In this document: piece after piece, positions 8,788-44,049 of the stretch
Numbering within the stretch: the stretch's first letter is position 1
Layout: each line of letters begins with the position of its first letter
Assembly: GCA_000934665.2 (NCBI GenBank)
Contig: JYFJ02003210.1
Coordinates: 1-45,001 of the forward strand
Source: Catajapyx aquilonaris
Lineage: Eukaryota
Reading direction: 5' to 3'
Length of the DNA: 45,001 nucleotides
The notes under the pieces: generated by a model
Told to the model about the DNA's origin: nothing
The model's input: the letters and a program-made list of their open reading frames with translations, nothing else
Database searches by the model: none
Translations under genes and position numbers: made by a program

Positions 8788-10269
8788 TTAGTCCGGATGC
8801 ACGCGAGTGACGTGTGCCTTGAGGTAGGAGCAGTGCTTGAAGGCCCTCGGGCAGAGAGGACACATGTACGGCCCCTGGTTCCTCTTCAGCGCCTGGCACT
8901 CTCTGCACATCCCTCCGACGCGTCCAGAACGCGCGGAAACGCGTCCGCACTGCCCGCACGGACCTTCCTCCGATTCATCCTCATCGTCAGACGCAGCAGC
9001 ACCCAGCACCGTCTGGACCAAGATGTAAGGCAGTGGCGGCGACGGAGACGGTCCTGGACTCGTCATCTTTCGGTCCAGGTCATCATCATCGTCATCATCA
9101 TCATCGTAGGGTAAGGAGGAGGATGAATCGGCGGCGGCTGCCTGCTGGAGGAGGCGGTGCTCTTCCTCCAGACGGTGCAGCTGCATGTGGTACATCAGCC
9201 CTGTCTCGCCGCTGCATACCTTGCCGCACTCGCTGCAACGACGCTTGCTGCTCCTGCAGTCCTCGTCGTTTACCGATGTTGCCACTGGCGGTGGCAGAGC
9301 AGCAGGAGTGGCCGCCGCGGGGGCTGACGGCCTCCGGTGGCGTCCAGCAGATGCCTTATTCGTCGTTAGGTCAATCGGCATCTCTGATGGAAGCAGCGTC
9401 GGGTAGCCCACTGATGTGGCAGGCAGCGTCGTCGTCACAGCAGGATGAGGAACAACAACCTGAGGCGTCGGAGATGCCGTGGGCGCGCCCACCTTCTCCA
9501 GGGCGGATATCAACACTCTGGCAGCTTCTGCGATGGGCTGAAGCACTGGCGACGGAACGACAGGAGTGCCCTTAATCGTTTCTGGCTGCATCGGCATGGG
9601 CAGGTCAGAAAGGATCGACGGCGTCTGTTCCCGCGGCGCCATCGGAGCCACCGTTGCAACCAGAGGCGTCGGAGGAGGAGTCGTGACCATCATCGGGGGA
9701 GTAATGGGCGCAGCATCAGCAGGAAAGGCCGTCGTCTTCCTGGGATGCTCCTCCCGCACGTGTCGTCGCAGCCGGTACGCATTGGCGCAGAGGACCCCGC
9801 AGTGACGGCACATCTTCTTCCTGTTCTCGTCGTGCCATCGACGGTGGCCCAGCAAGTCCTCCTTCCAGTCGAACTGAGCGTTGCAGATGGAGCACTGGTA
9901 CGGCTTAGACCCGATGAAGAAGAACGGCGTCATCTGCTGCTGCTGGTGATGCACCGGCGGGGGCGTCGTCACTCGCTTACTATTGTTAGCAATGGTCGTC
10001 GGCAGTGCCAGAGGGTCCTCCTGTTGCTGCGACTTGGCCGTACGAAGTAGCCAATCGGGGGTCGTCACCGTCGTTTCCTCCAGGTCCTCCGCATCGTCAT
10101 TACTATTGCCGCCGCCAACGCTGCTGTCCTGGTGAAGCCAAGGCAGGTCAATCACCAGCTTGTCGTCGTCGTCGTCAATGGTCAAGTCGTCGACCTCTTC
10201 CTTGACCACCACCCCGAACCCACCCAGTCCCCTTCCTCGGAACAGCATCTCGGCCACAGCTGCCGCCAT
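8788..10269 (-). CDS. C2H2 zinc-finger transcription factor (~493 aa, single coding exon)
   Basis: Four C2H2 fingers (CSIC..HRRWH, CRHC..HVREEH, CSEC..HMQLH, CPLC..HVTRVH), a PIDLT CtBP-type motif and a VKEE SUMO consensus. The start was placed at MAAAVAEM (10269); the in-frame stretch upstream looks intronic. Confidence 0.85.
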   Translation of the reverse strand: MAAAVAEMLFRGRGLGGFGVVVKEEVDDLTIDDDDDKLVIDLPWLHQDSSVGGGNSNDDAEDLEETTVTTPDWLLRTAKSQQQEDPLALPTTIANNSKRVTTPPPVHHQQQQMTPFFFIGSKPYQCSICNAQFDWKEDLLGHRRWHDENRKKMCRHCGVLCANAYRLRRHVREEHPRKTTAFPADAAPITPPMMVTTPPPTPLVATVAPMAPREQTPSILSDLPMPMQPETIKGTPVVPSPVLQPIAEAARVLISALEKVGAPTASPTPQVVVPHPAVTTTLPATSVGYPTLLPSEMPIDLTTNKASAGRHRRPSAPAAATPAALPPPVATSVNDEDCRSSKRRCSECGKVCSGETGLMYHMQLHRLEEEHRLLQQAAAADSSSSLPYDDDDDDDDDLDRKMTSPGPSPSPPLPYILVQTVLGAAASDDEDESEEGPCGQCGRVSARSGRVGGMCRECQALKRNQGPYMCPLCPRAFKHCSYLKAHVTRVHPD

Positions 10270-11918
10270 CCTACTCTGACTATCGTGACTGACTGACTGT
10301 CTGTCCGTCCTTCTCCGTCGTATCATGTTCAGCAAAATAAAAAAGACAAGCAGCATACGTGTCCTTATTACCTGCCAGCCAATGTCGATCGAGCATGAAT
10401 AAGTGACGAGTACGCGTGGCGGTCAAACGGCCACTGATCGATGGCATTGCCTCCTTATGCCCAACCATACCTGGGCCAACAGCACATTGTGTGTATACAC
10501 ATTCACTGGCCGACTGGCTTGCAATGCGTGTGTCTATGTGTGTGCAGAGGCAATCAGCTGGATGATGATGAGGGTGCAGGCCGACCCCAAACCCTTACTT
10601 TGCGCGCATTGCCTCCTCCACTATTCATGAATCAATTTCTAGTTTTATTCTTGGGCACTGTGATAGATAGATACACCTCCCGACAGTCCAAACCAAACGT
10701 ATCTCCCCCTCTACATATAGGCGGAAGTTGTCGCTTTCATTATTTGCAGCCAGCTGGACAACCCCCCACAACAATCGATTTGATTTACAAGGGTATATAC
10801 ACTCGCATGAAGAAACGCGACAACCGCAAGCAGACATGCGGATACGAATGTGTCCGGACTCCAAATAAATACAGGATAAAAATCCAGACAAGTCCTCTAC
10901 CAATGGACCACCTTATTGTCCGGCTAGGATACAACCTGATAATGCAATACATTTAGCTAAAATCTTGGTGATGTCAGCGATGAACAAGTAGAGCGATTTC
11001 ATCAAGACATCGCCAGCATGAAAAAGCGGTACCAAGGAAAATGGAATCCAAATATGTTGGCAGACTACTGCTGGACACTCAAGGGAGATATCCCACAAGC
11101 AAAATACAGCAGAAGGTCATCAATGGCTACTTTTTAATGGGTAATGCATATGTAACTTATATACCAGCTTCATATGTCTCCTTCAAATTTAAATTGTGTG
11201 TTACGTAAAAATCCTGCGTGATAGAAAGAAACTAATTACATATTTGAATTCAGCTGAAAAATAAAGTACTATTAGAATCACATATTATTCCCCGTGCTAC
11301 ACAAAAAAAGTTTATATTTCGTGCGGGGATGGGGTGCACATGTGGGCCGCGCTGGGTTGAGGGGACTTGCTTCAGCGTGCGAGAGAAAGGCCCACTTCGC
11401 CCTCAATTGTGTCACACGGTAGTATGTGAACGCGATGTAAAAAAGGCACACCGGTATGTTACTCATAAATGAGGACAAATAAAATCTTCACGAGACATAT
11501 GTTGAACTTGCATAAAAATCCAGTACTTTTCCACTATCGAACAATGGAAACTGATCCATAAAAAAAAAATTAAAAAAATGTATGGATTTGTCCTTCTTTT
11601 GAACAGCACAGACAGGTCATGATGTCCTGATGGCAAAGTCATGGTGCTGAATGCCAATTGAAAAGTTTTGCATAATTTAATTTAAAAAGTACTAGCACAA
11701 TTTCATATTTCATTAAACCTTTGAGGTCTATGAGCCTCATATGAGGTCCTGCAGGTTTCTGAACTGGGCGAGCTCGAGTTTAGACAGAAATGGCGCAGTT
11801 TGAGGCTCAAACTGCTCCTACCACCTCGTGGAAGGGGGCTCCACTACCACGGTGTATACTAATCAGTTATTCCGCCTCCCAGCATGAGCTACACATACCC
11901 CCTCCCATGGCGTCAGAA

Positions 11919-12826: not shown

Positions 12827-15800
12827 CTAATTTTCATCTATTGACATGATTTTCTTTTTTGGCAACGTCTTCTTGGGTGACCCCTTCTGTTTTGGCAATC
12901 CCACCTTCTTAGGTGACCTCTTCCTTTTTGGTGACCCCACCTTCTTAGGCGACCTCTTCTTTTTTGGTGACGCCACCTTCTTAGGCGACCTCTTCCTTTT
13001 TGGAGACCCCACTTTCTTAGGTGACTTCTTCTTTGGCGAACCATTTTTCCTCCTCTGCCTTCGTCCTGATTGAGCTGTAGCCTGAAAGGTGATACAATTC
13101 TGGTCCAGAAAGTCCATCAGCTGACTTGTGGTGACACAAATGCCATTTGACTTCATTGATCCCCTCAGGTCTTCAAGTCCAATCACATCATATTCCAGAA
13201 CCCGACGGTACAGTGCACTGTCTGACGTAATGAACTGGTGCATTTCACTGGCCAAAGCTTCTGTTGCTGGCCCACTGTCCCCTTTGTCACCATCCTGTGT
13301 TAAAATGCGCTCTTCCTCCACAGAAATCTGGCTCGTGGACACGCTGCTACCTCAAAAGCAAGCAATCACAATCACCAATGGCAACAATTTCATAATCATC
13401 ATCTACAATGGAAAATATTGTGACTCCAGCCTGGAATTGCAGAAATATTTTAAAATGGCCATTAGGAGTCGCTGATCACGTATGTAATGCCAAGTGCCCA
13501 AGTCACAACACAACCCATTATTTCTTCTGCAATGCTCAAGAGTAACAACAAGAATAATTAAACATGTTAATTATAAGCTTTCTCACCTCTCCTGTGAAGA
13601 CAGGAATTCATCACTGCTGTCACGAGTATCAGCAGGACATTTATCATGTGGATCATCTGTTGTGGTGTCTGGGAGAGAAGAATGGGTCGCCTTGTAAATG
13701 TGCCTGAGAATCTTCTTGGCCTTGTTCCTCGGAAAAGGCTTCACTCCAAAGCTCTTCAGCTCCTTCTTCAGCTGGGGGGTTTCCATGGCACTGTAGTCTG
13801 CCAAAGGCGTTACTGGCGTTTCCGGACGCTTCTTGGACAATTTTTTGGGCCCATGCTTCTTGGCTGCAACAGGCGTCGACATGGTATCCATGACAGGTTC
13901 ATTTTCATCATGCCAAAACACACTGTCATTGAAATTATCGAGTCCTGCGGCGTGTTCTGGATTGCCCATGTTGTCCCACTCGTTAATGTTGTTCAAACTG
14001 GACGCATTGTTGCAATCAGCGTCAACAACTGCTGTGTTTAGTCCAGGACTGTTAGTGGCACTTGCCTTGCTGACAAGGGGCATTCTGGGGTCTGCCACAG
14101 CATTGCCAGCCCTGTTATCTGGATCTGCTCCTGATGACCTGCTGCTCTGGGTCAGGTCAATGGTATCTCCATCCTCTGCAGCCGCCACTTTTGGTTCCTC
14201 AGCTTCATCAAGCCAATTTTTCACAGCATCCATCTTTTCATCTCCTTTGGAAAGCAAGTCCTTGCCAAGAAACTTGTCATTTGCCTCCCACCGTTCTGCC
14301 TTGTTGCTGATCCGATGTGGAGTAGACGTCCCACTCCCTTGTGTTAGGTCAATCTCTTCAGGCCCGTCATTTTGCCTTGGTTGAAACATTAAGTATGAGT
14401 CATTAGATGCATGACTATGCTCAGGTGTCCTCTGACTTGGCTCAATGTGGTCTGACCACTCAATGTGATCAGGGATGTCCATGTCCCAGAATGAGTCATT
14501 CAAATGGTTACCTGGATTAATGGCTGCATCAGTTACATCATGCCTGGAGATGTTGGGACTGGTCTTCAGGACATCGTGGTTTTCACTTGAAGTTTCAGGC
14601 CCATCGTTGGGGGCATCTGGTGTTTTGTGTGGAATATCTGAATGCGTGGAGGATTTGCTGGAGTGGATGTGAGGAAGGTCTGGAGTTTTGGCAGGGGAAT
14701 GGGAATTATTTGAAGAGTACTTGGGAGTTCCGGAAGGTTCCTTGGGGCTACCATTTCCCCCAATTATGGAATCATTACTAATCTCCAGGAGGCAGACACT
14801 ATTTTCAACAGTACTGTCCAAGTCGCACTTCTGATTTTCTGGAGTCCCTGAAGGGAGTAACACTTCCTCCGAAACTGCTCGCTTTGGTGTGGAAGACTGG
14901 GACGACAACTTGGGAAAGTCAAGTGTCCAGTCGGCTGGGTTTTCTAAGCCTGAGCATTCAGGACTCTCTGCACGCATCCTCTTCACTTGAGACGATGTGT
15001 CCTCATTAGACTTCCTTTTATGGCTTGTCTTCTGATCCATGAACCCTCCTTGACTTGACTCGATGATATCTTCTTCCCCCTCAAGTTTGTTCCCACAAAT
15101 CAGCTCCTTGACACCGTAACGGACGGCCAATTTGGACAGCTCACCAGAATTGCGTGTATTGGTGATGGTCCCACAGTAGAGGAACTCCAGAAAAGTCCAA
15201 GCAGCATCCCGAGTGACTTCAGTCCAGAGAAGCATGTCCATGGTGCATCCTCCTGGAGCAGTCTCCTGGATCATGTCCACCAGCACCAAGTTACCAATTC
15301 GAGCAAACAGGACTACCTTGTGGGCTGGAATGTCTTCATCCTGATAATCACTGGTACGGATAGTGACATCACTGAGCTTTGAATTTCCCAGCAGGCTTCG
15401 CCAGGATTCAGACAATGCCGAGGAACCCAAAGTAATTCCAAGACTCTTCCTGCATTTGCTGGTTTTAATCTTCTTCCTGGATTCAAGGTGCTTGTCTCCT
15501 TTACTATCACTATTCTTCCCAGAATTTACCGAGCATTGGGCAGATTCTTCAGCAAGGATATCAAGCATAGTCTGTGTGTCAGGAACACACTCCTGGGACA
15601 GCACACGGCCAGGAATCTGGGACAAGTGCCGTAAGTGCTTTCCAACATCTGAGTTTTTCTGGACAGACACATACCCAGACAATTCAGGCGTGTAGTATGC
15701 CTCTGGAGCATCATCCTTCTGAGCTGCCTTGGTCCACAACTTGGCCTCAGGGCAGTGAAATGAGGCTAGAGAGTCAGACTGGATAGGAACAGAAACGCTG

Positions 15801-18358
15801 CTCAAACTTTGTGGTCCACTAACACAATCCTCAAGCACCTCAGCAACTTTCTCGGAAATTATCCTCTCCCGCTCCTCTTTCTTACGACTAAGTAGGACAG
15901 TTTCCTGTGTTGGAATTCGCTTCTTCCTCACTGGAACGGTCTGGAATACCTCCTGATACACTTTGGCAGGCTTCACCTCATTTGCAAGTCCTGCTTCAAT
16001 AAGAAATTGATTTTGACGCATCCTCTGCTGCTCCTCTGCCTCCTTCATTGACTCGGAAAGAGCCAGAGCGGTCTGGAAATCAACATCCTTTGGAACCTTC
16101 TTGGACCGTGGCTTGTTCACTGCTGCTGGTTGAGGCATGGGAAGCCCCAGGGCAGATCTCTCCTTTGCTTGCTTCTGCTGCAGGGCCACTGCATCCATCA
16201 ACTGGCAGGTGTCAATCCCATGGCGAGCAGCACATGATTTCAGGTGGGAGGAACGCCCAGAGGGAAGCGGCTTCCAACAGAGAGGGCACGGCAGTGAAGA
16301 TGAATTCACGTCACTTTGTTTCTTGTCCTTTAAAAAAAAGAATTGAAAAATTGTCAATCAACAAGCAATGTAGTGTGTGTAACAGACTATGAGCTCATAG
16401 CCACATCACAGGAAATCTTCAATTTCCCCTTACTACTATAAGAACCTATTTTTTCGAAGGCACGTTTGGTTTTTTTTGCGGAGTTTTTTTTGTACTCCTG
16501 AAAGGACCAAAATCGTTCTGAAGTAACTATACGAATTATGTTTCTGTGATGTGCATGCCAAATATTTTTCTAAATTTTCCTCTGATTGTTCCAAACCGAG
16601 GAAAATTTAGAAAAATATTCGGCAACATATTGTGCAAGTGGAAACTGGCTATAAGTGGTAATAGAGTCCAGAGCAAGTAATACGAGGGTCGTTCGGAAAA
16701 GATCCGCACTCGATTTATTGTCGCGGCATACGTGGCTGCACGAAGTTGGCATATGCCTCAACAGGGGAGGCCACTAGTACCCTACACTTTGTAAAAAGTT
16801 TGTCATATTCACCACATCAGGTCAGCGACAGTGCCACTTGAAACGCGGGAGGGTGTAGATTGGCGTGGACAAGATGGAAGGTGACTATCACGGCCAACGG
16901 TGGACAGCCTGGTTCTTGTGGAAAGAAGGTGCGACAGTTGCGGACATTCACCGTCGTCTTGTGGTTGTGTGTGAAGTCCTGGCTCCAGGCCGCAGAACAG
17001 TTTACGACTGGATCCAGGCATTCAAGGCAGGCCATGCCACAGTAGAAAAAGGGCGCGAAAGGTGTTGCTCCTGCACAACAACGCGCGGCCTCACACCAGA
17101 AGCACAACGACACAATCACTGCTCGAGCTCGGTTACACTGTGTTGTCACACCCACCCTATTCCCCGGACCTGGCACCTTCTGACTATGGACTTTTCGACA
17201 CGATGAAGGAACCCCTCCATGGACGAAGATTTGCCAATGCGCCGAGCTCCAAGGAGCTGTCCATGACTGGGTGGTGAGGGCACCAAAAGACTGGTTCCGA
17301 GAGACGATCATGAAGTTGCCAGGAAGGTGGCAGAGGTGCATAGACCTCGGTTGAGAATACGTTGAGGCAGCCCAAGTGTGATTCGGCCTCTGCAGGTGCA
17401 TGTAGTGGCCAAAAAAAATTCCAGTGCGGATCATTTCCAAACGACCCTCGTACTTGCTCGCACTTTTTGTCTTTTGCCCAAGTTTTGTGATTTCCGTCAG
17501 TTTATCACTGTTATTTGGTTTTTGCTATGGTTTGTGACCAAATATTTATACTTTAGGCCTATAAAATTCTTCAAGCTTTTTTTATTTTAGCTGTAACATT
17601 ATCCTCCATACTCCCGGAAAAGTAACAATTTTGTGTCTATTTGAGGTTTTTTCCTGCCTATGTAAGGGCCTATTTCGGAGTTTTTCCGTGCCTAAAAATC
17701 CGGACTCTAAGGATCACACACCGACATGTCCTGTTCACGTTACCCACACCCTTACTCTTCATACAAAACCAAAGTAATTGGTCAGTCATGTGGAGGTGAG
17801 CCTGCATTTAGTGCCGAATAACATTTTAATATAATGACTTGGAACCACAATAATAATACGGTAAATATTGTCTCGCAAAAAAGAACAAATCACACCAATC
17901 ACATACCATGAGGCATTAAAGTACTGAGTGGAACAAGTATTGGTCAGAACAGGACAGGTGAAGTCTTGGTAATTATTACTTACAGAGGATATGGCAGGTA
18001 GACTTCTCACCAAATCATCTCCACGTCGGGAATCAGAAGGAGCCCACAGCTTGGTGAATGAAGGTGAATCGTCCACTTCTCTTTGCAGAGGAGCTGCTGC
18101 CTTGGAGCCAGCAGCCGCCTTCTTTGAATGGTGGCTTCCTTTCCTCTTCAAAACAGGGGCCATTTTGAGTCTTGATTCGGATTCTACTGTCTTCCTTGTT
18201 GGCACTGCCACCTTCCCTGTCACACTGCTGGAGGAGCTGCCAATTTTCGGTGGTGAAGCCACACCTGCTGGCTTGCTGTTTTTGATGGCAGCCTTCAACA
18301 TAGCTGGACTGTCACTTGCATCAAAGTACTTGGAACCAATTTTCTTAAAATCTGCCAT
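12827..18358 (-). CDS. SLX4: Structure-specific endonuclease scaffold SLX4 (BTBD12/mus312), ~1210 aa, 3 coding exons
   Basis: Exons 18358-17984, 16327-13587 and 13343-12827, with GT-AG junctions and consistent phase (3633 nt). Domains in the expected order: UBZ finger (CPLC..HLKSC), MLR-like region (DFQTALALSES, LWTKAA..YYTPEL), BTB (SDVTI..AHKVVL..FLEFLYCG), SIM-like IDLT motifs, SAP (TPLADYSAMETPQLKKELKSFGVK) and SLX1-binding domain (LYRRVLEY..LMDFLDQNCITF). Confidence 0.9.
12865..13045 (-). repeat. Coding 33-bp tandem repeat encoding SPKK/SPKR motifs
   Basis: Repeated ggtgaccccaccttcttaggcgacctcttcctttt-like units, translating as SPKKVGSPKRKR. Confidence 0.85.
16683..17450 (+). mobile_element. 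Internally deleted mariner (DD34D) element in SLX4 intron 1
   Basis: TA|cgagggtcgttcggaaaagatccgcact ... agtgcggatcatttccaaacgaccctcg|TA. N-terminal HTH remnant (ADIHRRL..TVYDWIQAFKAG) joined to the C-terminal LLHNNARPH..HPPYSPDLAPSDY, with frameshifts. Confidence 0.92.
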
Positions 18359-27267: not shown

Positions 27268-29313
27268 TTACTTCTTTGGAGACACAGGCTTGAACGCAAT
27301 CTTACGACTCTTGATCACCGACCACTTGTGCCTCTTCGCGTAGTATGACAGGGCAATTAGACCAGAGAAGATCATCAATGCCTGCAAGTAGACAAAAGGT
27401 ACCATCACATCATTTTCTCATTTGATTCGGCCCTTCCCAAGCATTCAACTAACAAGAAGCATCAGGTTCAAAACTGGAGCCATCAATTTTCCACTAGAGT
27501 TACATAATTTACGGCCACTTCACCAACAACACCCCAAGTCACTGGGCAGCAATTTTGTTACTCGAGCGTGTATCATGCCAGCTGAGTACAACTTGCCTTG
27601 AGTGCCATCCTCTTGCGCTCATCGTACTCTGGTTCCGCTGCCCACTTGAGGAAGGTGCAGACATCTTTTGCCAGCTGTGAGGCGGTGGCAGGGGTGCCAT
27701 CTGAGTACTCCATCAACTTTTGGGCAAGAGGAGGAAAATTAGCATCTGCATCAAACACAATACAGTCGAGTCTGCTTGCATTACACCCTGGATTGATAAG
27801 AAAATCGAGGACTGACAGTAATTTCAAAATACTGCCATGTAAAATTTTCTCACCATGGAGTAACACTACCAGGTTTCACGGTTTTAACCTGTACCAGACT
27901 GGAAGCACTTACCTCATTGTACAGGGCCTGTGCCATGCTGATGGCTCCACCAGCAAAGTATGGGTTGTAGTACTGGCCTTCTCTGAGCTGAATTCCAGCG
28001 GGAGCATCGCAATAGCCAGTGAGGAGCGAAAAGATGTAATCCTCGCCGCCATGTCTTGCGGAGGTAATATAACTGAGGTCAGGGGGGAAGGCCCCGTTGT
28101 TGGCAGCTCTTGCAGCTTCCTCGTTCGCGTAGGGACTGGGGAAGTAGTCGGACAGTTTTCCTGGACGCATGAACATGTTGCCATTTTCATCTGGTCCATC
28201 CTGCACCTGCACCTCCTCTGCCTCAGCCTTGGCTTCCACCTCCGTGTGGGACACCCCAATCAGATTGCGGTAGGCAATAAACCGCATGCTGTGACACGCA
28301 GCACACACCTGCTTGTACACTTCATACCCACGACGAACGCTGCAAAGAGGTTGGAATGAAATTATTGACACTATTCTGCTTAATTATGTGCCAGACACGG
28401 ACTTGTAACAAATCAATTGTAACTCATGCAGAGTCAGATGACAACACATAAAAAATAACACTCGACCCTTTTATGAACATCATCTAAATTTTACACCTTT
28501 CAGAAATCACTGGCCGGAAATTGACGCACATCATCTCTCTGCTACTCCTACCTACTAAAGAACTAAACCAACCAACATACCCACCTAGCATGGTCAAGGG
28601 ATTGGAAGTACCCGTTGTGGCTCCAAGGGAACTTTGGTGTGTGCAACTCCAGGTCTCCGGCACTTACTGAGCACTCCAGGGCACAGGCGACGCCTAGGGC
28701 ACCACCAGACAGAACACCCAAGGTTCCCAGGACCTGAAATCAAGTAGAATAATGCTAAGAATTGGGGAAAGTGCAGAAGAGAGGCACCAAAGACGATGGT
28801 ACTCACCACTTTCCGCGACCTGGACATGTGGCGAAGCATCCCAAATGCCGACTGGAAAGAAAAGGCACAAATTATGAAAACATTCCTTGAAGTGAAATTC
28901 ACACTTTCAGATGCATGAAAATTGAAGGTAACTGGAACGTTGAAAGAGGCACGCAGGGGTAAACATGCAGTTAATTAAATGAACCACCCCAGGGAATTCA
29001 GGTGCTCTGCTGTTGGGAGTTGGCCAGCTAACCGAACATGCCGAACATATAGAATTTACCCACCATTGTTGTAAATTACACCAGCTGCTGCTGCTGTCCT
29101 GGAGTAACAATTAATTATTATTTCCGAATGATGTTCCGAGAGGATCGGAGGGGCAGGGGAAGCGGCCCGCGCTGTTTGTGCCCTCTTTGTCTGTCCGCCT
29201 GGCCGGGTCTGGGGCAGTGGGTCGGACGGAGTTGAGGTGACCGTGAGCGGGGGGACCTACAGCTGCTGGGAAGATGAGGAGCCGATCCTGCCCCTGGAAC
29301 AGACGGCGGCCAT
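27268..29313 (-). CDS. CYC1: Cytochrome c1, mitochondrial complex III, ~323 aa
   Basis: Exons 29313-29261, 29098-29064, 28931-28903, 28851-28807, 28733-28585, 28339-27913, 27716-27597 and 27381-27268 (972 nt). Contains [16 protein letters not shown] (heme CxxCH), PPDLS, YYNPYF, GTPAT and KRHKWS. The two smallest presequence exons are inferred from phase. Confidence 0.95.
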
Positions 29314-33991: not shown

Positions 33992-34308
33992 TTATCCATA
34001 GAAATAGATTCAACTCCATACTACTTGTATCCTAGTATTTTGCACTACTGGGTCAACCAAAATCCTTCCAGAAAATACTTTAAACTCGGCACCCACTACT
34101 TTTCAACACCCAAGATCTCACAGTAGCCACTAAGAAATTACACCCTGCAAGATTTGTATCGTCAGAAAAACCACTCACCATGCATGCATCAGGCCAACAG
34201 GCTGGAAATTCCTTCAGCCTGCAAAACCAAACAAGTAGCTGAGTGGCAAAAAATCAACTGAGAAAACAATAATTATGTTCACTAGGAAGGACTGAAGGCC
34301 AGTTAAGT

Positions 34309-34389
34309 GGAAGCTCAGGCAATAGGGACGATCGTATATCTTCATCGTTAACTCCAAGCGAGCTGGGTATTTTTGTCATCACTGCTTCC
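34309..34389 (-). ncRNA. SNORD29: Box C/D snoRNA U29 homologue (28S guide), copy 1
   Basis: ggaagca-GTGATGA..ACCCAGCTCGCt-TGGA..CGATGA..tccctattgc-CTGA-gcttcc. The guide pairs with 28S GUGAGCUGGGU (D'+5 on the A), and tccctatt pairs with the adjacent AAUAGGGA. Confidence 0.8.
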
Positions 34390-34576
34390 AACTGCCCCCT
34401 GCCTCGAAGTGAATGTCAAGACACCCGAAGCCTTACCTGATATGACCGTCCCGGAAGTGCTCCATTTTCCTCCACACTCGCAGATGTCCACCAGAAACAT
34501 CTGAAAAGCACAATTATGTTTGGTTTTCCTTCATCTGACTTGTCAAGCATACGAGCAATAAGAGTCAAGAGAGGTA

Positions 34577-34642
34577 GCAGTCTCAGATAAACCTTTCTTC
34601 AACTATAATCAGACTGGGGCGGTAACTCTCATCACAGACTGC
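34577..34642 (-). ncRNA. SNORD31: Box C/D snoRNA U31 homologue (28S Gm guide)
   Basis: gcagtct-GTGATGA-gagt-TACCGCCCCAGT-CTGA..CTGA-gactgc. The guide is complementary to 28S ACUGGGGCGGUA and matches the U31 guide as I recall it. Confidence 0.92.
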
Positions 34643-34960
34643 ACCTCTGCTTCACCAAACACTGCTCATAGCTTTTACATTAGTGGATTTTTTTGTTTTG
34701 TTTGGCTACACTGGGCCAGGCAAAATGTAATGCTGAGAAATTTATGTTGCGCCTTTTCTTGTCCCGGGGAAATTACTTGAAAGTGACTTACCTATATTAC
34801 CAAATTCCTGGCCAACTCATGAAGGAGCATGTCCTCTACCACCGTGATGGAAAACCACTTTTCATCATATCGTTGCGAGCACCTGAAAGGTTCCAGTGCA
34901 TAATAAGTAGACTACCAATGGCGACATGCAACATTCATAGATGTATGCATCTGGAATGAA

Positions 34961-35031
34961 CTGTCTCAGATATTCAGCAGTCAGTCACAAGGGATATGCC
35001 AGGGATAACTTATTTTCAGCATCATGGACAG
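34961..35031 (-). ncRNA. SNORD1: Box C/D snoRNA snR38/SNORD1 homologue
   Basis: ctgtcc-ATGATGC..AGTTATCCCTGg-CATA (degenerate D')..GTGACTGA..CTGA-gacag. The guide is complementary to 28S CAGGGAUAACU. Confidence 0.75.
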
Positions 35032-35211
35032 ACTTCCAGAAGTAAAGCAAAGTCCATGCATATCGCAAATTTGGTCTCACCTGACCCTGAAATGGTCCTC
35101 TTGTTCAGCTGACCCAAAGTGAAGCTCCAGGTGCTCTTCCTGTCAATAAAAAATGCAATGTTGGAGAAATGTAAGTATTACTTCACAGCACCTCGGCTCA
35201 TCCCATATGTA

Positions 35212-35422
35212 CTCCCACGAGCATAACGATGGAGACGGCAGGCCCTTTTTTGACCTTGCTTTATGCGACTCAAATTAATGAACTCTTTTTGGACCGAGTT
35301 AGCTGCTTCAGTCGTGTCTTCGTGTATTTATGTCAGTATATTTGATACCGTAATAGCTGCAATTGGCAGAGCAGCCTGCCGAAGGTGAAGGCTTGCCGTC
35401 TCCATCTTTATGCTCGCGGGTG
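35212..35422. mobile_element. Tc1/mariner-type MITE with TA TSD
   Basis: TA|ctcccacgagcataacgatggagacggca ... tgccgtctccatctttatgctcgcgggtg|TA. The empty site (catatgtacaataa) is present in the duplicate at ~39112-39125. Confidence 0.9.
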
Positions 35423-35466
35423 TACAATAATTGGCTTCAGAAGATTTGCAATCTAAATTTGTTTCA

Positions 35467-36221
35467 AGAGCGCGCTCTAGGCTCCGCGTCCCATTGTTGC
35501 GGGCAGCCCGTCGCGGCCCGGCTCGTGAGTTTGATGCTTCTTCCTCTCACTGTCACGGTCGCAAATATGGAGGTATCGGCATGAAACAGGAGTATCTGGA
35601 CACAAAAGAGTTGCACTTTGAAATGGTGCGTTTATTTTTCTCCTGGGGCGATATTTGCGGCCGCCGTGGCCAGGTACAGTTCTTTATTTTGACCCGCAAT
35701 CACTCCTTTCCATGTCGGGACCTGTGAGATTCGAGCCCATGACAAGTTTTTACGCCGAATTACCGTAAGTGTGTGAAAGGGCACGAGTGTGGCAGTCTTG
35801 GTTTGGCCAAACTTTGGGACGAAAAATACCCCCCTCCATGAACAATAAGAACTCGCACGAAGAACTGGCAGAACTGGCGAATGATCTGGCAGCGCCGCGC
35901 TGACTGCCAGTTCCGTAACCACTGTGACTGAGATAAGGTAGAGCGCTAAGCACTTACACTTACGGTAATTCGGCGTAAAAACTTGTCATGGGCTCGAATC
36001 TCACAGATACCGACATGGAAAGGAGTGATTGCGGGTCAAAATAAAAAACTGTACCTGGCCGCGGCGGCCGCAAATATCGCCCCAGGAGAAAAATAAGCGC
36101 ACCGCCTCAAAGTGCAACTCTTTCGCGTCCAGATACTCCAGTTTCATGCCGATACCTCCACATTTGCCGGGCAGCGACTGGCTCCCCGCAACAACGGGAC
36201 GCGGAGCCTAGAGTGCACTCT
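35467..36221. mobile_element. PIF/Harbinger-like long-palindrome MITE, copy A
   Basis: agagcgcgctctaggctccgcg ... cgcggagcctagagtgcactct|TAA; arms of about 270-300 bp. Confidence 0.8.
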
Positions 36222-36789
36222 TAATGTCCCAATAATGACTCCAAACATATCAGCATTAAGGAGAAAGGACGAATAGACAATTTATCCTAAAATGGCAAGA
36301 AGGTACGTCTCAAGGTGTCATCACCCATTGCATGTTTTGGTGAAACAGCAGATGTGTACATGGAACAGTCTGCCTGTGTGAGAAAGTGGTCCCAGCGACT
36401 ATCCAAAAGCAGCGTAAGGAGAAAGGGCGAATATCCACAGGCATGCGACAAGGGTTATTCACTCATATTTTTTGAATACACAGACTACCCTTGGTGAACA
36501 ACTCCTGGTCCATGGTCTTTCCGGAGGATTTACATTACTAGCCTGATGAACTTGGCAACGCCGTACTTTATCGATACACAGCTGGGACCAATATCCATTT
36601 AATTTATTACACTTAACCCTCTCTCTGCCACTAGATTTGATGGTTTCTTAAATTGCAATTAGGGGGTGGGTGTCCTCCTTGAGCCTTATTTCCCCACGAA
36701 ATATTGCTTAGAATCCAATCAATTTGCTAAATTCCCAAAATTGAGCTAGTCTTCATACAACCTCTATCGTTGTGCACTAAGCCAGAATT

Positions 36790-38208
36790 GACCAATTTCC
36801 AGTTGCACGCCTCTCGCAGCCAATTTTGGCCTGCCATCAAAATGGCGGTGTTAGCTGTGCAGAGGCGGGACTTTCCTATCCCTGCCCATGTTAAATGGCC
36901 TCTGCTTGCTCGCATCTCGGGGTCTGGCCCCAGGGCAGATCTTGTTGACATCTTTTTTTGTGGAGTGAGGAGGTTCCTGGCCTGCCCTCACCAGGTTTCA
37001 GAAGTTAATTGGCCCCCGGGCGGACTGCCCCCGGAGTGATTTTGTGAATGGTGATCGCGCTTTTCTCATTGCTGTCCGGGCTCCGATTGTCCGCGTCTGG
37101 GGGTCAGGCCCCGGGGCAGATCTTGTTGACATATTTTTTTGTGGAGTGAGTATGTTCCTGGCCTGCCCTCACCAGGTTCGAAAAGTTAATTGGCACCCGG
37201 GCGGACTGCCGCCGGAGTGAATTTGTGAGTGCGAGTTTCTTATTACTAATATCCGGTCTCTTTATTGTCCACGTCTGATGGTTTGGTCCCGGGGCAGATC
37301 TTGCTGGTTACTTTGTTTTGGAGTGAACATAGACCGGACTTTACCAGGTGCCTGAAGTGAATCAGCCCCGAGGCGAAGTGCCCCCGGACCCGGAGTGATT
37401 TTGTTATAGTGACAGCACTTTTCTCATTATTATCTGGGCTCCGATTATCCGCATCTGGTGGTTTGGCCCTGTGGTAGATCTTGCTGAGCATTTTTTTGAA
37501 TGGTTCCACTAATTTCATAAATTACAGTGTCACATTACACTCCCAGCATAACAGAACTGTTGCAAAAATATGCACGTATACGGTACAATCTTATCGCAAA
37601 CATTCATTAGAACAAATGACAGATTTTTTTTAAATGAGCAAGCTACAAACTTACACAAACATAGTCAAAAGGGTTCATCCTCAGCAAGATCTGCCCCGGG
37701 GCCAAACTGCCAGACGCAAACAATCGGAGCCCAGATATACGTAATAATGAGAAAAGCGCGGTCACCTCTATGAAACAAAATCACTCCGGGTCCGGGGGCA
37801 CTTCGCCTCGGGGCCGATTCACTTCACGCACCTGGTAAGGGAAGGTCCGGTCTCTGGTCACTAAAAAAAACCCAGCAAGATCTGCCCCGGGGCCAAACCA
37901 TCAGACGCGGACAATAAAGAGACCGGATATTAGTAATGAGAAACTCGCACTCACAAAATCACTCCGGCGGCAGTCCGCCCGGGGGCCAATTAACTTTTGG
38001 AACCTGGTGAGGGCAGGCCAGGAACATACTCACTCCACAAAAAAATATGTCAACAAGATCTGCCCCGGGGCCTGACCCCCAGACGCGAGCAAGCAGAGGC
38101 CACTTAACATGGGCAGGGATAGGAAAGTCCCACCTCTGCACAGCTAACGCCGCCATTTTGATGGCAGGCCAAATTTGGCCGCGAGAGGCGTGCAACTGGA
38201 AATTGGTC
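36790..38208. mobile_element. Foldback-type element with AATT TSD (Sola1-like), arms of ~180-bp tandem repeats
   Basis: AATT|gaccaatttccagttgcacgcctctcgc ... gcgagaggcgtgcaactggaaattggtc|AATT. The empty site gccagaattgggtg is at 40351-40364. Arms ~36790-37500 and ~37683-38208 contain repeated ggccccggggcagatcttg units. Confidence 0.88.
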
Positions 38209-38296
38209 AATTGGGTGCTGATCCAAGCTGCAAATTAGATACTACCACTGAGTCAAACAGTGATGCAGGTGGCATCCATTTGGCAAAGTTTATTGA

Positions 38297-38386
38297 GAGG
38301 AAGCTCAGGCAATATCATGGGAACGATGGTTTATCTTCATCGTTATGAACTCAAAGCGAGCTGAGTAGTCTCATCATTGCCTCCTC
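38297..38386 (-). ncRNA. SNORD29: Box C/D snoRNA U29 homologue, copy 2
   Basis: gaggaggca-ATGATGA-gactACTCAGCTCGCt-TTGA..CGATGA..cgttccc..attgc-CTGA-gcttcctc. Confidence 0.75.
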
Positions 38387-38894
38387 TTTCGCTGACAACC
38401 GCCCTTTCTGATTGGGCCCACCAGTGCAACAAAGCCTGCGAAACTGACCTGATGAATGCCAGCCCTGCCAGGAGCGTTGTCTGCCCAGGGCCCGGCGCAC
38501 TGAGATTCCCAATGCACCTGCAGCAGGGTCCAAGTGCCAAACCCCATGCTCCTCACCCTGCATCCTCCCTGCCGTATTTCCTGTAATATTAAGAGAACAG
38601 CGCCATGCATATTCAGAGGCGTGGAATGCCAGCGGATGGGTCTGGCTGGGCCTAGATATGGCCGGATCCTCGTGGCCTGCACACAGTTCCCTCTCTCACC
38701 TTCTCGTCTCCTTTTGCGGTCCCCGGCTTGGGTTGGATGCTGGGGAAGGTGCCTGCCCCCAGTCCTTTCCCCGTGGCTTGACCCCGCTGACCAACCCCTG
38801 GGCTTGAGAGCGCTGGACTCGGGTGGATCACTTGGGACACTTCCGCACTCTTCGCCAGACCACTGCGGAAAAGGATGAAGAGGGTGGCTCGTTC

Positions 38895-38942
38895 GTCACA
38901 AGGGATATGCCAGGGATAACTTATTTTCAGCATCATGGGCAG
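38895..38942 (-). pseudogene. Truncated snR38/SNORD1 copy at the duplication junction
   Basis: C box and AGTTATCCCTG guide retained; the D-box end is replaced by junction sequence. Confidence 0.65.
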
Positions 38943-39161
38943 ACTTCCAGAAGTAAAGCAAAGTCCATGCATATCGCAAATTTGGCCTCACCTGACTCTG
39001 AAACGGTCCTCTTGTTCAGCTGACCCAAGGTGAAGCTCCAGGTGCTCTTCCTGCCAATAAAAAATGCAATGTTGTAGAAATGTAATTACTTCACAGCACC
39101 TCGGCTCATCCCATATGTACAATAACTGGCTTCAGAAGATTTGCAATCTATATTTGTTTAA

Positions 39162-39832
39162 AGAGTGCGCTCTAGGCTCCGCGTCCCATTGTTGCGGGGA
39201 GCCCGTCGCGGCCCGGCCCGTGAGTTTGACACTTCTTCCTCTCACTGTCACGGTCGCAAATATGGAGGTATCGGCATGAAACTTGAGTATCTGGACACAA
39301 AAGAGTTGCACTTTGAGATGGTGCGTTTATTTTTCTCCTGGGGCGATATTTGCGGCTGCCGCGGCCAGAAACAGTTTTTTATTTTGACCTGCAATCACTC
39401 CTTTCCATGTCGGTACCTGTGAGATTCGAGCCCATGACAAGGTGTTTACGCCGAATTACCGTGTGTGAAAGGGCACGAGTGTGGCAGTCTTGGTTTGGCC
39501 AAACTTTGGGATCAAAAATACCCCCCTCCATGAACAATAAGAGGCGTAAAAACCTCCTCATGGGCTCGAATCTCACAGGTACTGACATGGAAAGGAGTGA
39601 TTGCGGGTCAAAATAAAAAAAACTGTACCTGGCCTCGGCGGCCGCAAATATCGCCCCAGGAGAAAAATAAACGCACCATCTCAAAGTGCAACTCTTTTGA
39701 GTCCAGATACTCCAGTTTCATGCCGATACCTCCATATTTGCGGCCTTGACAGCAAGAGGAAGCGTCAAACTCACGGGCCGGCCCGCGACGGGCTCCCTGC
39801 AACAATGGGACGCGGAGCCTCGAGCGCGCTCT
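39162..39832. mobile_element. PIF/Harbinger-like long-palindrome MITE, copy B
   Basis: TAA|agagtgcgctctaggctccgcg ... cgcggagcctcgagcgcgctct|TAA. Confidence 0.82.
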
Positions 39833-39861
39833 TAATGTCCCAATAATGACTCAACATATCA

Positions 39862-39940
39862 GCATTCAGGAGAAAGGACGAATAGACAATTTGTCATAAA
39901 ATGGCGAAAAGGCATGTCTCAAGGTGTCATCACCCATTGC
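39862..39940 (-). ncRNA. Candidate box C/D snoRNA
   Basis: GTGATGA..ATGA..CTGA about 67 nt apart, with a weak stem. The paralogue at ~36253-36330 has CTTA in place of the D box. No target recognised. Confidence 0.35.
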
Positions 39941-40447
39941 ATGTTTTGGTGAAACAGCAGATGTGTACATGGAACAGTCTGCCTGTGTGAGAAAGTGGTC
40001 CCAGCGACTATCCAAAAGCAGCGTAAGGAGAAAGGGCGAATATCCACAGGCATGCGACACAGACTACCCTTGGTGAACAACAACTGGTCCATGGTGTCTT
40101 TCCGGAGGATTTACATTACTAGCCTCATGAACTTGGCAACGCCGTACTTGATCGATACCAATATCCATTTAATTTATTACACTTAACCCTCTCTCTGCCA
40201 CTAGGTTTGACGGTTTCTTAAATTGCAATTAGGGGGTGGGAGGTGTCCTCCTTGAGCCTTATTTCCCCACGAAACATTGCTTAGAATCCAATCAAATTGC
40301 TAAACCCCCAAAATGGAGCTAGTCATTCAACCTCCATCGTTGTGCACTAAGCCAGAATTGGGTGCTGATCCAAGCCGCAAATTAGATACTACCATTGAGT
40401 CAAGGAGTGATGCAAGTGGCATCCATTTGGAAGGGTTTATTGAGAGG

Positions 40448-40534
40448 AAGCTCAGGCAATATATCAATGGTGGAAGATAGTATCTCGTCATCGTTTTGAA
40501 CTCAAATATTGGCGGACTAGTCTCATCATTGCTT
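40448..40534 (-). ncRNA. U29-scaffold box C/D snoRNA with a replaced guide, copy 3
   Basis: aagca-ATGATGA-gactAGTCCGCCAATAt-TTGA..CGATGA..attgc-CTGA-gctt. Boxes and spacing are as in copy 2, but the guide differs. Confidence 0.7.
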
Positions 40535-40987
40535 TGGCTGCAGCTGACCCCCCGCCCTTCCTGATTGTGCCCACCTCCAGTGCAAACGAAGCCTGCGAAA
40601 CTGACCTGACGAGGAGCGTTGTCTGCCCAGCAGTCCCCCGCGTGCATCTCCAGCAGGGTCTAAGTGGCAAACCCCACGCTCCTCCTCACCCTGCATCCCG
40701 GCGTATTCCTGCAACAGAACAGCGCCATGCATAGACTGGAAGAGGTGTGGGACGCCAGCCAGCCAGCGGATGGGTCTGTCTGGGCCTAGATATGGCCGGA
40801 TCCTCGTGGCCTGCATGCCCGCAGTTCCCCCCACTCACCTTCTCTCGTCTCCCTCCCTTTGCGGTCCTCCCCGGCTTGGTTTGGATGCTGGGGAAAGGTG
40901 CCTGCCTGCCCCCAGTCCGTGGCTTGACCCCACTGGGCCTGAGCCACGCTTGACTCCCAGGGTGGATCACTTGCGACACATCCTCAC

Positions 40988-41105
40988 CCTTCGCCAGACC
41001 ACGCCGGAAAGAAAGAATAAAGGAAAAGGAAAGGCGAAAAGGGGCGGACGGAAGGTGGGTGGAGGAGGAGGGGCATCATCCGGTCCAATACTATCGATAC
41101 ATCGA
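40988..41105 (-). promoter_or_regulatory. Putative TCT/TOP promoter and first exon of the snoRNA host gene
   Basis: Minus strand ttCTTTCTTTCCggcg then donor agg|gtgagg; GC box ggggcgg at 41041; DRE TATCGATA at 41092-41099. Confidence 0.6.
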
Positions 41106-41904
41106 TCCCACATATCGGGCACGATGATCTCATCCTCTCTCCACAACAGCCCCATCCATCACCAAGCTCTTCCCAATGGTGGTGATGATAATGTCCTATT
41201 CCACAGCTGCAGCTCTATCAAGGCATCATCTCCACTCTCCAGCAGGAGGGACAACAAGCGGCCCCTGACCGGCGTGGCCCGTGTGCCTCCAAGCATATCG
41301 ACACTCATTGTTGAGTATCGATGTTTGTTCCTACAACGTTGCCACATTTTCAGGTGTTCAGTAGTTGGATGCAAACAAGATTGCATTTCAAATGCAGAGT
41401 CTGAAGAAATAACTGAAGAGATGCTGCTGTGCGGTGTGGACTCTGGTGTGTGGTGGATGCACCAGTGAGTATATAACATGCACTTGATAATCCAGACCAG
41501 GGCCCGGGTGCAACAACTCATCAGATAGTGAGATAGGGGGAATTATTCCGCGTTTATGGTTGGTACTATAGTTTCACCAAAACGAAGAGGCGCTGCGAGT
41601 ACGATACCTAGACGAAGCGGATGTAATAAATGAACACATAATTAGGATTTAATACAATGCATTACGTAGTAAAGTTATGCGAAAACCTAATAAAATATTT
41701 AAATTTGTAAACTGTTAGCGTAGTTCATAAGATACCCATGACGCCACAAGACACCTGTCACATCTGCCTGCCACTTTCAAATTTTGGTCAAATTTCATCT
41801 TGGAAATATGCCAGAAACCAGTATAGTTGGATCCACAGGGTTTCAACGGATCTTTGAAGAAAGGAACCTGCACAGCAGTCTCTTTCTTCAACAGAAGAAT
41901 AATC

Positions 41905-44049
41905 ATGCCCAAAAAGATCCCATCTAGGCACGTTTGCTATCTGAAAGGATGCAAAAACAACGACGCTACGGAGTGCACTTCAGCCAGGCTGTTCTACTTC
42001 CCAAGAAGTCAAGAAGTGTAAGTAATTTTTGAAACTCATAGAAGTCGTTGCTGGTCCTTGAGTTATTGCAATTTTATCCGGGTCGGCCCATTTAAAAAAA
42101 AAAAAAATACATTGTTGTATCCACCCACAGCCGTCTGTGGGCCAAGTTTCAGCTCTTTGTAGGTGACCTGGAAGTTCGGTACATAGCCCGGACATAATGG
42201 AAAAAAAAATCCTTTATACTTGCCCAGTATAGTTCGCCCTCCCCAAAAAAGTGAAGTGGTGGCGGGGGTAATAAACAAAATGTGACCACAAATTTCCATT
42301 ATGATTATCTGGACTTTAGAATGGATAATTATTGAATAGTAACATGGGAGTTAAGGGGATACAAAAGTTGAAGTTGATTTGACAGTTAACAACTGAAATA
42401 AATATGATTACACATTGGACAGTGAATTTCCGTAGGGTCAGGTAAAAATTGCTTCCATTACGTTTATGATACTTAGCAGCAGGATATCAATTTTATAATG
42501 AACCCCAGGGTCCACACAAATCTGAAGGCAGCATTAAAATTAATTACAAAAAAATCAACCACGGAAAAAGTCCGCGAGACATCCCTTTTTTAAATTCCGT
42601 AGTATATTTTTGTAATTAATTTTAATGCTGCCTTCTGATTTGTGTGGCCCCTGGAGTCCATCCTTAAAATTGATATGCTGCTAAGGAACATATAAACGTA
42701 GTGGAAGCAATTTTTACCGGACCCTACGGAAATTCACTCCCCAAGGTGTAATCCTATTTATTTCAGTTCTTAACTGTCAAATCAACTTCAAGTCTTGTGT
42801 CCACCTAACTCCCATGTTACGATTCATAATATTCTAAAGTCCAGATAATCATAATGATGATTTTTTATCACATTTTGTTTATTACCACACCACACCATTT
42901 TTTTGGGGGTGCGCGAACAACACTGGGGGTGGTGCAACCATTACATATGCTATGTAGGTGCAACCAACCCAGGGGTAGTGTTTGTTTAATGTGAATAATG
43001 TTCTTAATTGCTATTTCCAAGTAAATTTTCAGTGACAGCATCAGTCAAATGTGAAGTCATTATTAATGATTCACACTTAATGACAATCAGGAATCACTTA
43101 ACTTTGGTGAGACATGTACATTCCAGTTGAGCTGTACTACCTATCAGCACCTTTTTGTAATATATGACTAATGACTTTATGAAATTATTTTAATACTGAT
43201 GTAATTCTGAATAATGAACAGATAATAATTTAATGCTTAATTGCAATGAGTTTTTAATTACTTCTTTACCATTAACTACTGTTGATAACGTAACCATTAG
43301 TAACCAGAAATATACACCCAGTGTTTTTATTATTCAAAGTGATTATTTCAGTGTATAGTGTGCCTGCTGAGCTTAAATTGTCTGAGGTAAACAACTCCGC
43401 TACTAACAACTAGTGATACTGTCTTATTGTCAGCTACTTCATCATTGCGCATTTTTATTGCAGATTCTCACAGTGGCTGGCCTTTTGTGGCAACCCCACT
43501 CTCCATACTTCCCCTGAATCATTCAGGACTACACGCTTGATCTGCGGAGAGCATTTTGAAAAAAAATGCTTCACCAACAGCAAGGAGGACCAGCTGGTCC
43601 GAGGATCTATTCCTACTCTCCTGCCACAACCATGTCTGCAGGTGGATCCTCATCAGCTGGAGGCATATCAGGACCAAGGTCCATGCAGCAGCCGCAGCAC
43701 AACCCATCACAGTCCATCCAGCAGCACCGGCATGGAAGTCCTCCACGCCCAAGGTCCACCCAGCAGCAGCACAAGCCCAGCAATGGCTGATCCCATCAAC
43801 CTCCGGGCCTCTCCTAGTAGCTATGAGTCCATCTGCTCTCCTCCACATTCAGAGTCTGCATCAGCCCATCCAGAAACGCCTAAATCCAAATCACGCAGTA
43901 ATGTTGTGAGTTTGTCCCACCTGAAGATGACTCGCCTGTCCCAGTTCTGCAGCCCAACCACCAGGAGACTCTATCAAGAGGTCAAGAAGAAGGAGAAGGT
44001 ACTGCGGCAGGTGAAGAAGACATGTTTAGGCATGTTATATACTCTGTGA
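41905..44049 (+). CDS. THAP-domain protein (host gene or P-element-derived), possibly with further exons
   Basis: Exons 41905-42017 and 43464-44049 join in phase: C-YLKG-C..LFYFP..QWL..IC-GE-HF..SIPTL is the THAP C2CH signature. A further open exon-like segment lies at 44449-44602. Confidence 0.8.
42223..42927. mobile_element. ~700-bp palindromic MITE in the THAP gene intron
   Basis: Diverged ~340-bp inverted arms (cattatgattatctggactttagaat / attctaaagtccagataatcataatg; gaatttccgtagggtc / gaccctacggaaattc). Confidence 0.8.

Follow-up and report, generated by a model that had tools for sequence, protein, structure and literature searches.

A U29-derived box C/D RNA with a changed D' element in a tandem duplication of Catajapyx aquilonaris

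U29 relatives and guide divergence among snoRNA paralogues

SNORD29/U29 (RF00070, clan CL00051), of which yeast snR71 is presumably the counterpart, is the closest described relative of three box C/D RNAs, here called copies 1, 2 and 3, in a 45,001-nucleotide stretch of Catajapyx aquilonaris DNA (contig JYFJ02003210.1, positions 1 to 45,001; hereafter the window). Like U29, copy 3 has the same box arrangement, a GACT spacer after box C and a host-gene setting beside U31, but it is without a D' element for 28S GUGAGCUGGG, lacks the accessory element and scores 15.9 bits where SNORD29 demands 48. SNORD47/U47 (RF00281) offers a second comparison as UCCGCCAA in copy 3 complements the same loop of the LSU, immediately 3' of GGGAACGGGC; unlike SNORD47, however, copy 3 pairs over 8 bases, its D' box lies 3 nt further off and the rest of the RNA has no homology.

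Several U29 isoforms are found in the Drosophila Uhg1 host gene. The non-coding Uhg genes of Drosophila have one snoRNA per intron, with 16 in Uhg1 (PMC4430873). Van Nues et al. (2011, PMC3116282) described extra base-pairing near the methylation site for many yeast and human snoRNAs, snR71 being one of them. Similarly, copies 1 and 2 have a second element (TCCCTATTG and CGTTCCC, respectively) for the rRNA directly 5' of the methylation site, which copy 3 has lost.

Paralogous snoRNAs with differing guides are described from three other lineages. Near-identical paralogues in Xenopus carry different and sometimes weak yet active antisense elements (Deryusheva et al. 2019, PMC6984369), Drosophila CD5a and CD5b/c have isoform-specific predicted targets (PMC13228274), and target switches are described in the fungal clans CD_5 and CD_19 (Canzler et al. 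2018, PMC5824354). Like copy 3, these family duplicates retain their boxes and differ in their guides. In contrast to copy 3, which is known from its sequence alone, their new guides are matched to targets and according to the same sources some were verified by modification mapping. Since guide divergence in duplicated snoRNAs is already documented in frog, fly and fungi, copy 3 is one more case, from a lineage whose snoRNAs are little studied.

The host gene and its tandem duplication

The minus strand of the window bears an apparent non-coding host gene with SNORD31, a snoR38-like RNA and the three U29/SNORD29-like box C/D RNAs (Table 1). Scanning both strands of the entire window for C/D boxes returned six candidates, on the minus strand only: copies 1 to 3, SNORD31 and an unannotated pair (39939-39852 and 36329-36244). 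Copies 3 and 2 were returned at 40534-40448 and 38387-38296, in keeping with the sequence and coordinates of the preliminary description. Rfam matches to SNORD29 fall at 38300-38382 (copy 2) and 34310-34387 (copy 1) with 36.8 and 31.4 bits, and both of these scores as well as that of copy 3 are below the gathering score. The likely targets of the RNAs were assessed on 107 eukaryotic rDNA loci (357 kb in all) taken as a panel from metagenome contigs. Most of these loci are from microbial eukaryotes and most have a partial LSU, and 19 of the 107 carry an SSU motif. The guide target of SNORD31, CTGGGGCGG, is present in 23 of these loci and that of the snoR38-like RNA, AGGGATAAC, in 43.

Table 1. 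Positions of the snoRNAs, their elements and the duplicated units in the window
Feature	Position	Strand	Remarks
Copy 1, U29/SNORD29-like guide	34308..34390	-	ACCCAGCTCGCT, D' TGGA; copy-specific guide at 34357-34371; terminal stem 7 bp; outgroup
SNORD31 (U31)	34577..34642	-	Rfam 45 bits (gathering score 40); in the adjacent intron of the putative host gene
snoR38-like box C/D RNA	34959..35033	-	Rfam 34.6 bits, gathering score 45
Duplication unit A1	34984..36790	-	self-comparison
Palindromic (foldback) insertion, ~1.4 kb	36786..38212	.	36786-37306 against 38212-37682, inverted, 80%
Duplication unit B1	38209..38871	-	bears copy 2; homologous to B2
Copy 2, U29/SNORD29-like guide	38296..38387	-	terminal stem 9 bp; Rfam SNORD29 36.8 bits
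Copy 2, D box	38305-38308	-	CTGA
Copy 2, accessory element	38319-38325	-	CGTTCCC
Copy 2, C' box	38337-38341	-	GATGA
Copy 2, D' box	38351-38354	-	TTGA
Copy 2, D' guide	38355-38366	-	ACTCAGCTCGCT
Copy 2, C box	38371-38377	-	
Duplication unit A2	38895..40360	-	homologous to A1
Duplication unit B2	40356..41010	-	bears copy 3; homologous to B1
Putative 3' splice site homologue	40375..40385	-	downstream of copy 3; CTAATTTGCGG
Copy 3, U29-derived box C/D RNA	40448..40534	-	terminal stem 4 bp, AAGC/GCTT; C/D-box scan
Copy 3, D box	40452-40455	-	CTGA
Copy 3, C' box	40488-40492	-	GATGA
Copy 3, D' box	40502-40505	-	TTGA
Copy 3, D' antisense element	40506-40518	-	AGTCCGCCAATAT
Copy 3, C box	40523-40529	-	ATGATGA

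Self-comparison places copies 2 and 3 within a diverged tandem duplication with a unit of ~2.1 kb. The flanks of the two copies are homologous and can be aligned by both blastn and MAFFT, which bears out the earlier proposal that copy 3 arose by tandem duplication. Units A1 and A2 align in three pieces of 95.6%, 94.0% and 85.0% identity. Units B1 and B2 show 75% identity over 711 columns in blastn and a mean column identity of 84% in MAFFT, the latter alignment containing 107 substitutions in 614 aligned columns (17%) and 90 gap columns. The ~1.4 kb palindrome, which separates A1 from B1, is confined to the first unit and has therefore arrived after the duplication. Further long palindromic (foldback/MITE-like) elements are seen at 35421-36222, 39161-39833 and 42223-42927, and the first two of these occupy the equivalent place in both units, which indicates that this pair predates the duplication.

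Unit A2 comprises a truncated 5' half of a snoR38-like RNA, a putative short exon, a MITE-like palindrome and one member of the unannotated C/D-like pair. The half-copy, at about 38895-38950 on the minus strand, has a C box (ATGATG) and the guide AAGTTATCCCTG, but ends after CCCTTGTGAC and runs into unrelated sequence without a D box. It marks one of the duplication breakpoints, which lies inside the snoR38-like RNA gene. A stretch of 7 kb contains the ancestral copy and the outgroup copy as well as the breakpoints of the duplication. The C/D-like pair of unit A (39852-39939 and 36244-36329, minus strand) is recognisable by GTGATGA, CTGA and a terminal stem of 4-5 bp. It belongs to no Rfam family, the best match reaching 14.2 bits (E 4.2), and no convincing recurrent rRNA complement was found for it in the panel, where GGAGAAAGG occurs in 10 of the 107 loci.

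Consensus-like splice sites are found in the short stretches between the snoRNAs, and an exon model of the host gene can be proposed from these motifs. The distance from the end of the snoRNA to the next AG is 76 nt for U31, 76 nt for the snoR38-like RNA, 50 nt for copy 1 and 68 nt for copy 2. Downstream of copy 2 the putative 3' splice site reads CTAATTTGCAG (38228-38238), its role being suggested by the motif and by a spacing of 68 nt as compared with 76, 76 and 50 nt. At the homologous place in the unit of copy 3 the AG is replaced by GG (40375-40376) and is therefore lost, with a possible substitute AG located ten bases beyond. Upstream of unit B2 (40999-41099, minus strand) there is a long pyrimidine tract, CTTTTCGCCTTTCCTTTTCCTTTATTCTTTCTTTCC, together with a GC box-like CCGCCCC and a TATCGATA motif (41092-41099), and this region looks like a TOP-type housekeeping promoter that could belong to the host gene. 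The homologous point of unit B1 is preceded instead by TTTTCCGCAG, a 3' splice-site-like motif (38860-38872).

Divergence of copy 3 and loss of U29 pairing

Copy 3 has the layout of a box C/D RNA with C and D boxes, a 4-bp stem, a C'/D' pair and a 13-nt single-stranded element upstream of D', and the alignable flanks as well as the three-way alignment of the copies establish its common descent with the U29 genes. Between copies 2 and 3 the four boxes are identical (C 0/7 positions changed, D' 0/4, C' 0/5, D 0/4; together 0/20), and this includes the D' box TTGA, which is a variant in both. The GACT spacer (0/4) is likewise unchanged and the D'-to-C' loop has a single change in nine positions. 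The D' guide, on the other hand, differs between ACTCAGCTCGC-T and AGTCCGCCAATAT by six substitutions and one indel over 13 columns (12 aligned bases), and the C'-to-D region by 11 substitutions and four gap columns out of 32. The latter region of copy 3 is also without the accessory CGTTCCC, and in all of these respects, i.e. shared boxes, switched D' guide and missing accessory element, the preliminary description was accurate. Changes are also found in the terminal stem, where the 3' strand is intact (0/8) and the 5' strand is altered in four of eight positions, which shortens the stem from 9 bp in copy 2 to 4 bp in copy 3 with no compensating change on the 3' strand.

It had further been suggested that the divergence is concentrated in the antisense elements, and this is borne out with some qualifications. 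The substitution rate of the flanks is 16% (85/524), the guide has diverged more than the flanks (Fisher p 0.008), and the boxes differ from the non-box interior (0/20 versus 18/53, p 0.001), the chance of 0/20 box changes at the flank rate being about 0.03. The 5' stem strand, however, has also changed, and because six or more substitutions are found in 28 of the 584 13-column windows of the flanks, the divergence of the guide is unusual but not extreme. In addition the Fisher tests overstate significance if the changes arose as a few clustered or multi-base events. The unchanged boxes fit with continued selection for snoRNP assembly.

The direction of change is given by copy 1 as the outgroup. 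The three-way alignment contains 11 changes specific to copy 3 as opposed to three specific to copy 2 (binomial p 0.057), and by this comparison copy 3 is the derived and faster-changing copy. The faster rate along its branch could be due to positive selection instead of a relaxed constraint. Replacement of the guide by templating from a donor in the window was considered and rejected: similar 13-mers occur only with two mismatches, in three matches compared to 0.8 expected, a number that is reached by 3 of 100 shuffles.

The U29 site, whose commonest form in the panel is AATAGGGAACGTGAGCTGGGTTTA, serves as a positive control for guide pairing. An 11-bp run that includes position 5 is formed on the 28S U29 site by copy 1 in 101 and by copy 2 in 102 of the 107 loci. 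The corresponding duplex energies are -21.7 kcal/mol for copy 1, -18.7 kcal/mol for copy 2 and -5.7 kcal/mol for copy 3, and the last forms no pairing run with LSU GUGAGCUGGG (A at position 5) that would identify it as a SNORD29 guide. The accessory elements differ between the copies that retain them. CGTTCCC of copy 2 is complementary to the GGGAACG that lies immediately 5' of the U29 site, and TCCCTATTG of copy 1 complements CAATAGGGA next to the same site, CAATAGGGA being present in 20 of the 107 loci. In copy 1 the element (34319-34327, minus strand) is situated directly upstream of GC-CTGA (box D), whereas CGTTCCC in copy 2 is further away from box D. The accessory pairing is thus shifted between the two copies, and in copy 1 TCCCTATTG is so near to box D that it could serve as a second guide. 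As had been proposed, copy 3 has lost both the U29 guide (-5.7 against -18.7 kcal/mol) and the accessory pairing, CGTTCCC being gone.

Candidate targets and the role of copy 3

The guide of copy 3 has no recurrent complement of at least 8-9 bp among the 107 rDNA loci, all from other eukaryotes. The best matches are G-U-rich runs in single loci and the commonest are 7-bp runs in no more than 26 loci. The full 13-mer complement does not occur in the panel within one mismatch, with three singletons at two mismatches, and Watson-Crick 9-mers from any part of copy 3 show no meaningful recurrence in the 107 loci. When metagenomes were scanned for the U29 scaffold with the guide left free (C box, spacer, 11-14 N, D', C'), there were 0 matches, and a full-text literature search did not return the rRNA motif and returned the guide 11-mer only in papers unrelated by title. 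As the panel consists of metagenomic loci from other organisms, it is possible that copy 3 has a target in this species in an rRNA segment specific to the lineage, in a spacer, or in an snRNA, tRNA or mRNA. Five Rfam families that resemble copy 3 (DdR11, snR75, snoU30, SNORD33 and SNORD47) were dismissed, with scores of 13-20 bits that are far under their gathering scores and reflect shared boxes; the likeness to snR75 and snoU30 stems from the chance resemblance of CCAUUGAU to CCAUUCAU.

A pairing of copy 3 with 28S UUGGCGGA, in the region targeted by vertebrate U47, had been put forward. The 8-bp complementarity exists but it is at chance level. On the same 7.9-kb locus eight Watson-Crick pairs including position 5 are reached by 388 of 1000 shuffled guides and by 386 of 1000 random 13-mers, and the match is therefore without statistical weight. 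It also depends on an rRNA variant of vertebrate type, whereas a protein-coding exon of the window has its best named matches in insects. This part of the LSU is covered by 20 panel loci, in which CAGCCAAGGGAACGGGCTTGG is followed by 7-8 variable bases and then by CAGCGGGGAAA, and the TTGGCGGA variant, with which copy 3 pairs over 8 bp (-14.3 kcal/mol), is present in one of them. In the loop after GGGAACGGGCTTGG the 7-8 bases between CTTGG and CAGCGGGG differ widely in the 20 loci and both sides are nearly invariant; bounded by GGGAACGGGCUUGG and CAGCGGGG, this loop is the region with which the SNORD47 guide pairs.

The start of the SNORD47 consensus, AACCAgUGAUGuaAUGAUUCUGCCAA, aligns without gaps to AAGCAAUGAUGAGACUAGUCCGCCAA of copy 3 (13.3 bits, E 4.3, gathering score 50), which places the 8-mer of copy 3 at the position of the SNORD47 guide. 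Copy 3 is nevertheless not a member of SNORD47 given this score, the 8 bp of pairing and the UAU between GCCAA and D'. SNORD47 presumably pairs through a D' guide of ~12 nt with UUGGC(A/G)GAAUCA, with D' directly after GCCAA, and its target is presumably the C located three positions 3' of the U that copy 3 would select. The UAU spacer before D' would accordingly direct copy 3 to a different base.

The reading favoured here, with modest confidence, is that copy 3 is a redundant U29 paralogue that is drifting, has lost its guide and most likely guides no modification. Duplication of the ~2.1-kb unit left copy 3 as a young tandem paralogue, apparently in an intron of the host gene. Copies 1 and 2 would keep guiding modification of the conserved 28S site GUG-A-GCU, in which the A faces the fifth base before D', and as they still serve this site copy 3 would be redundant. 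What is secure is the loss: the D' antisense element, the accessory element and half of the terminal stem of copy 3 have been destroyed, and the SNORD29 score has fallen from 36.8 bits in copy 2 to 15.9 bits. The strong divergence of the unit as a whole, with flank windows as diverged as the guide, also favours this reading. Since the C, D', C' and D boxes are intact, copy 3 may still assemble a snoRNP and persist as an orphan RNA. It may be inferred that copy 3 is transcribed within the host intron, enters such a snoRNP and lacks a function. The absence of a recurrent target in the panel, the chance-level match, the lost accessory element, the uncompensated decay of the stem and the change of AG to GG at the putative 3' splice site all count against a function. 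Of the retargeting after tandem duplication that was originally proposed, the duplication, the derived state of copy 3 (11 versus three changes) and the loss of the U29 guide have stood, but the gain of a new target has not, with no recurrent complement and an 8-bp match at chance level. Copy 3 as it is seen would represent the commoner outcome, in which a redundant guide loses its antisense element and the short protein-binding boxes survive for a while.

A new function is the foremost alternative and is given a minority probability, on account of the intact boxes, the concentration of change between them and the known precedents. Copy 3 would then be expressed and its new D' element would methylate a new and probably lineage-specific site in rRNA or in another RNA, the methylated base being the U that faces the fifth base before D' in a sequence such as AUAU-U-GGCGGACU. 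Such a role would agree with the retention of the boxes alongside changes in both antisense regions (0/20 versus 18/53, p 0.001; guide versus flank p 0.008) and with the faster change along the copy 3 branch, and the 4-bp stem is as long as the stem of the Rfam SNORD29 consensus (3 bp). UCCGCCAA is spaced from box C just as UCUGCCAA is in the SNORD47 consensus, and as the rRNA loop is variable among eukaryotes a longer match in this species is conceivable. Diverged guides in paralogues have precedents in the studies cited above (PMC6984369, PMC13228274, PMC5824354). However, no target of at least 9 bp recurs in the 107 rDNA loci, the 8-bp match is what 388 of 1000 shuffles achieve, and the base selected differs from the one assumed for SNORD47, which copy 3 matches at 13.3 bits (E 4.3) against a gathering score of 50. 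The accessory element that might have docked on GGGAACG is also lost, and the weakened stem is uncompensated. The more specific version, a fresh guide in which the boxes are under selection and the D' element was rewritten in 7 of 13 positions towards a lineage-specific site such as the variable LSU loop just 3' of GGGAACGGGC, where the ancestral accessory element could already dock, is somewhat less probable again. If copy 3 were expressed and directed a new methylation, it would specify a ribose methylation lacking in its relatives and would be a clean, datable case in which duplication within a multi-snoRNA host gene creates rRNA modification sites.

A smaller probability still, that of a distinctly doubtful reading, attaches to copy 3 being expressed as a box C/D RNP with a role other than guiding, for instance in chaperone-like pairing or as a source of shorter RNAs. 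The contrast between boxes and interior would be expected if the boxes were selected and the antisense elements free to change, and non-canonical roles have been described for orphan snoRNAs (PMC13228274), but the sequence indicates no particular role and no part of copy 3 has conserved complementarity in the panel. It is highly improbable that the duplication is an assembly error or that copy 3 is not derived from a snoRNA. The region is rich in palindromic repeats, which can trouble assemblies, though this yielded no positive support; the units show 5-25% divergence and are further set apart by a 1.4-kb insertion, which is not the mark of collapsed or falsely duplicated reads, and homology to copies 1 and 2 extends through both boxes and flanks.

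Elsewhere in the window, a near-perfect 63-nt hairpin at 33588-33650 matches mir-550 on the plus strand (43.8 bits, gathering score 81) and mir-1281 on the minus strand (34.7 bits, gathering score 70) and is more likely to be a small palindromic repeat than a microRNA. The open reading frames, which apart from cytochrome c1 are named from a reading of their translations, appear to include a C2H2 zinc-finger protein (8788-10422, minus strand), a long exon resembling SLX4 that contains lysine- and serine-rich repeats (13583-16357, minus strand), ribosomal protein L9 (25909-26364, minus strand), the start of a THAP-type protein (about 41880-42010, plus strand) and cytochrome c1 (27850-28383, minus strand). 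In a homology search the best named matches of the cytochrome c1-like exon were from the insects Diploptera punctata (92%) and Ladona fulva (87%).
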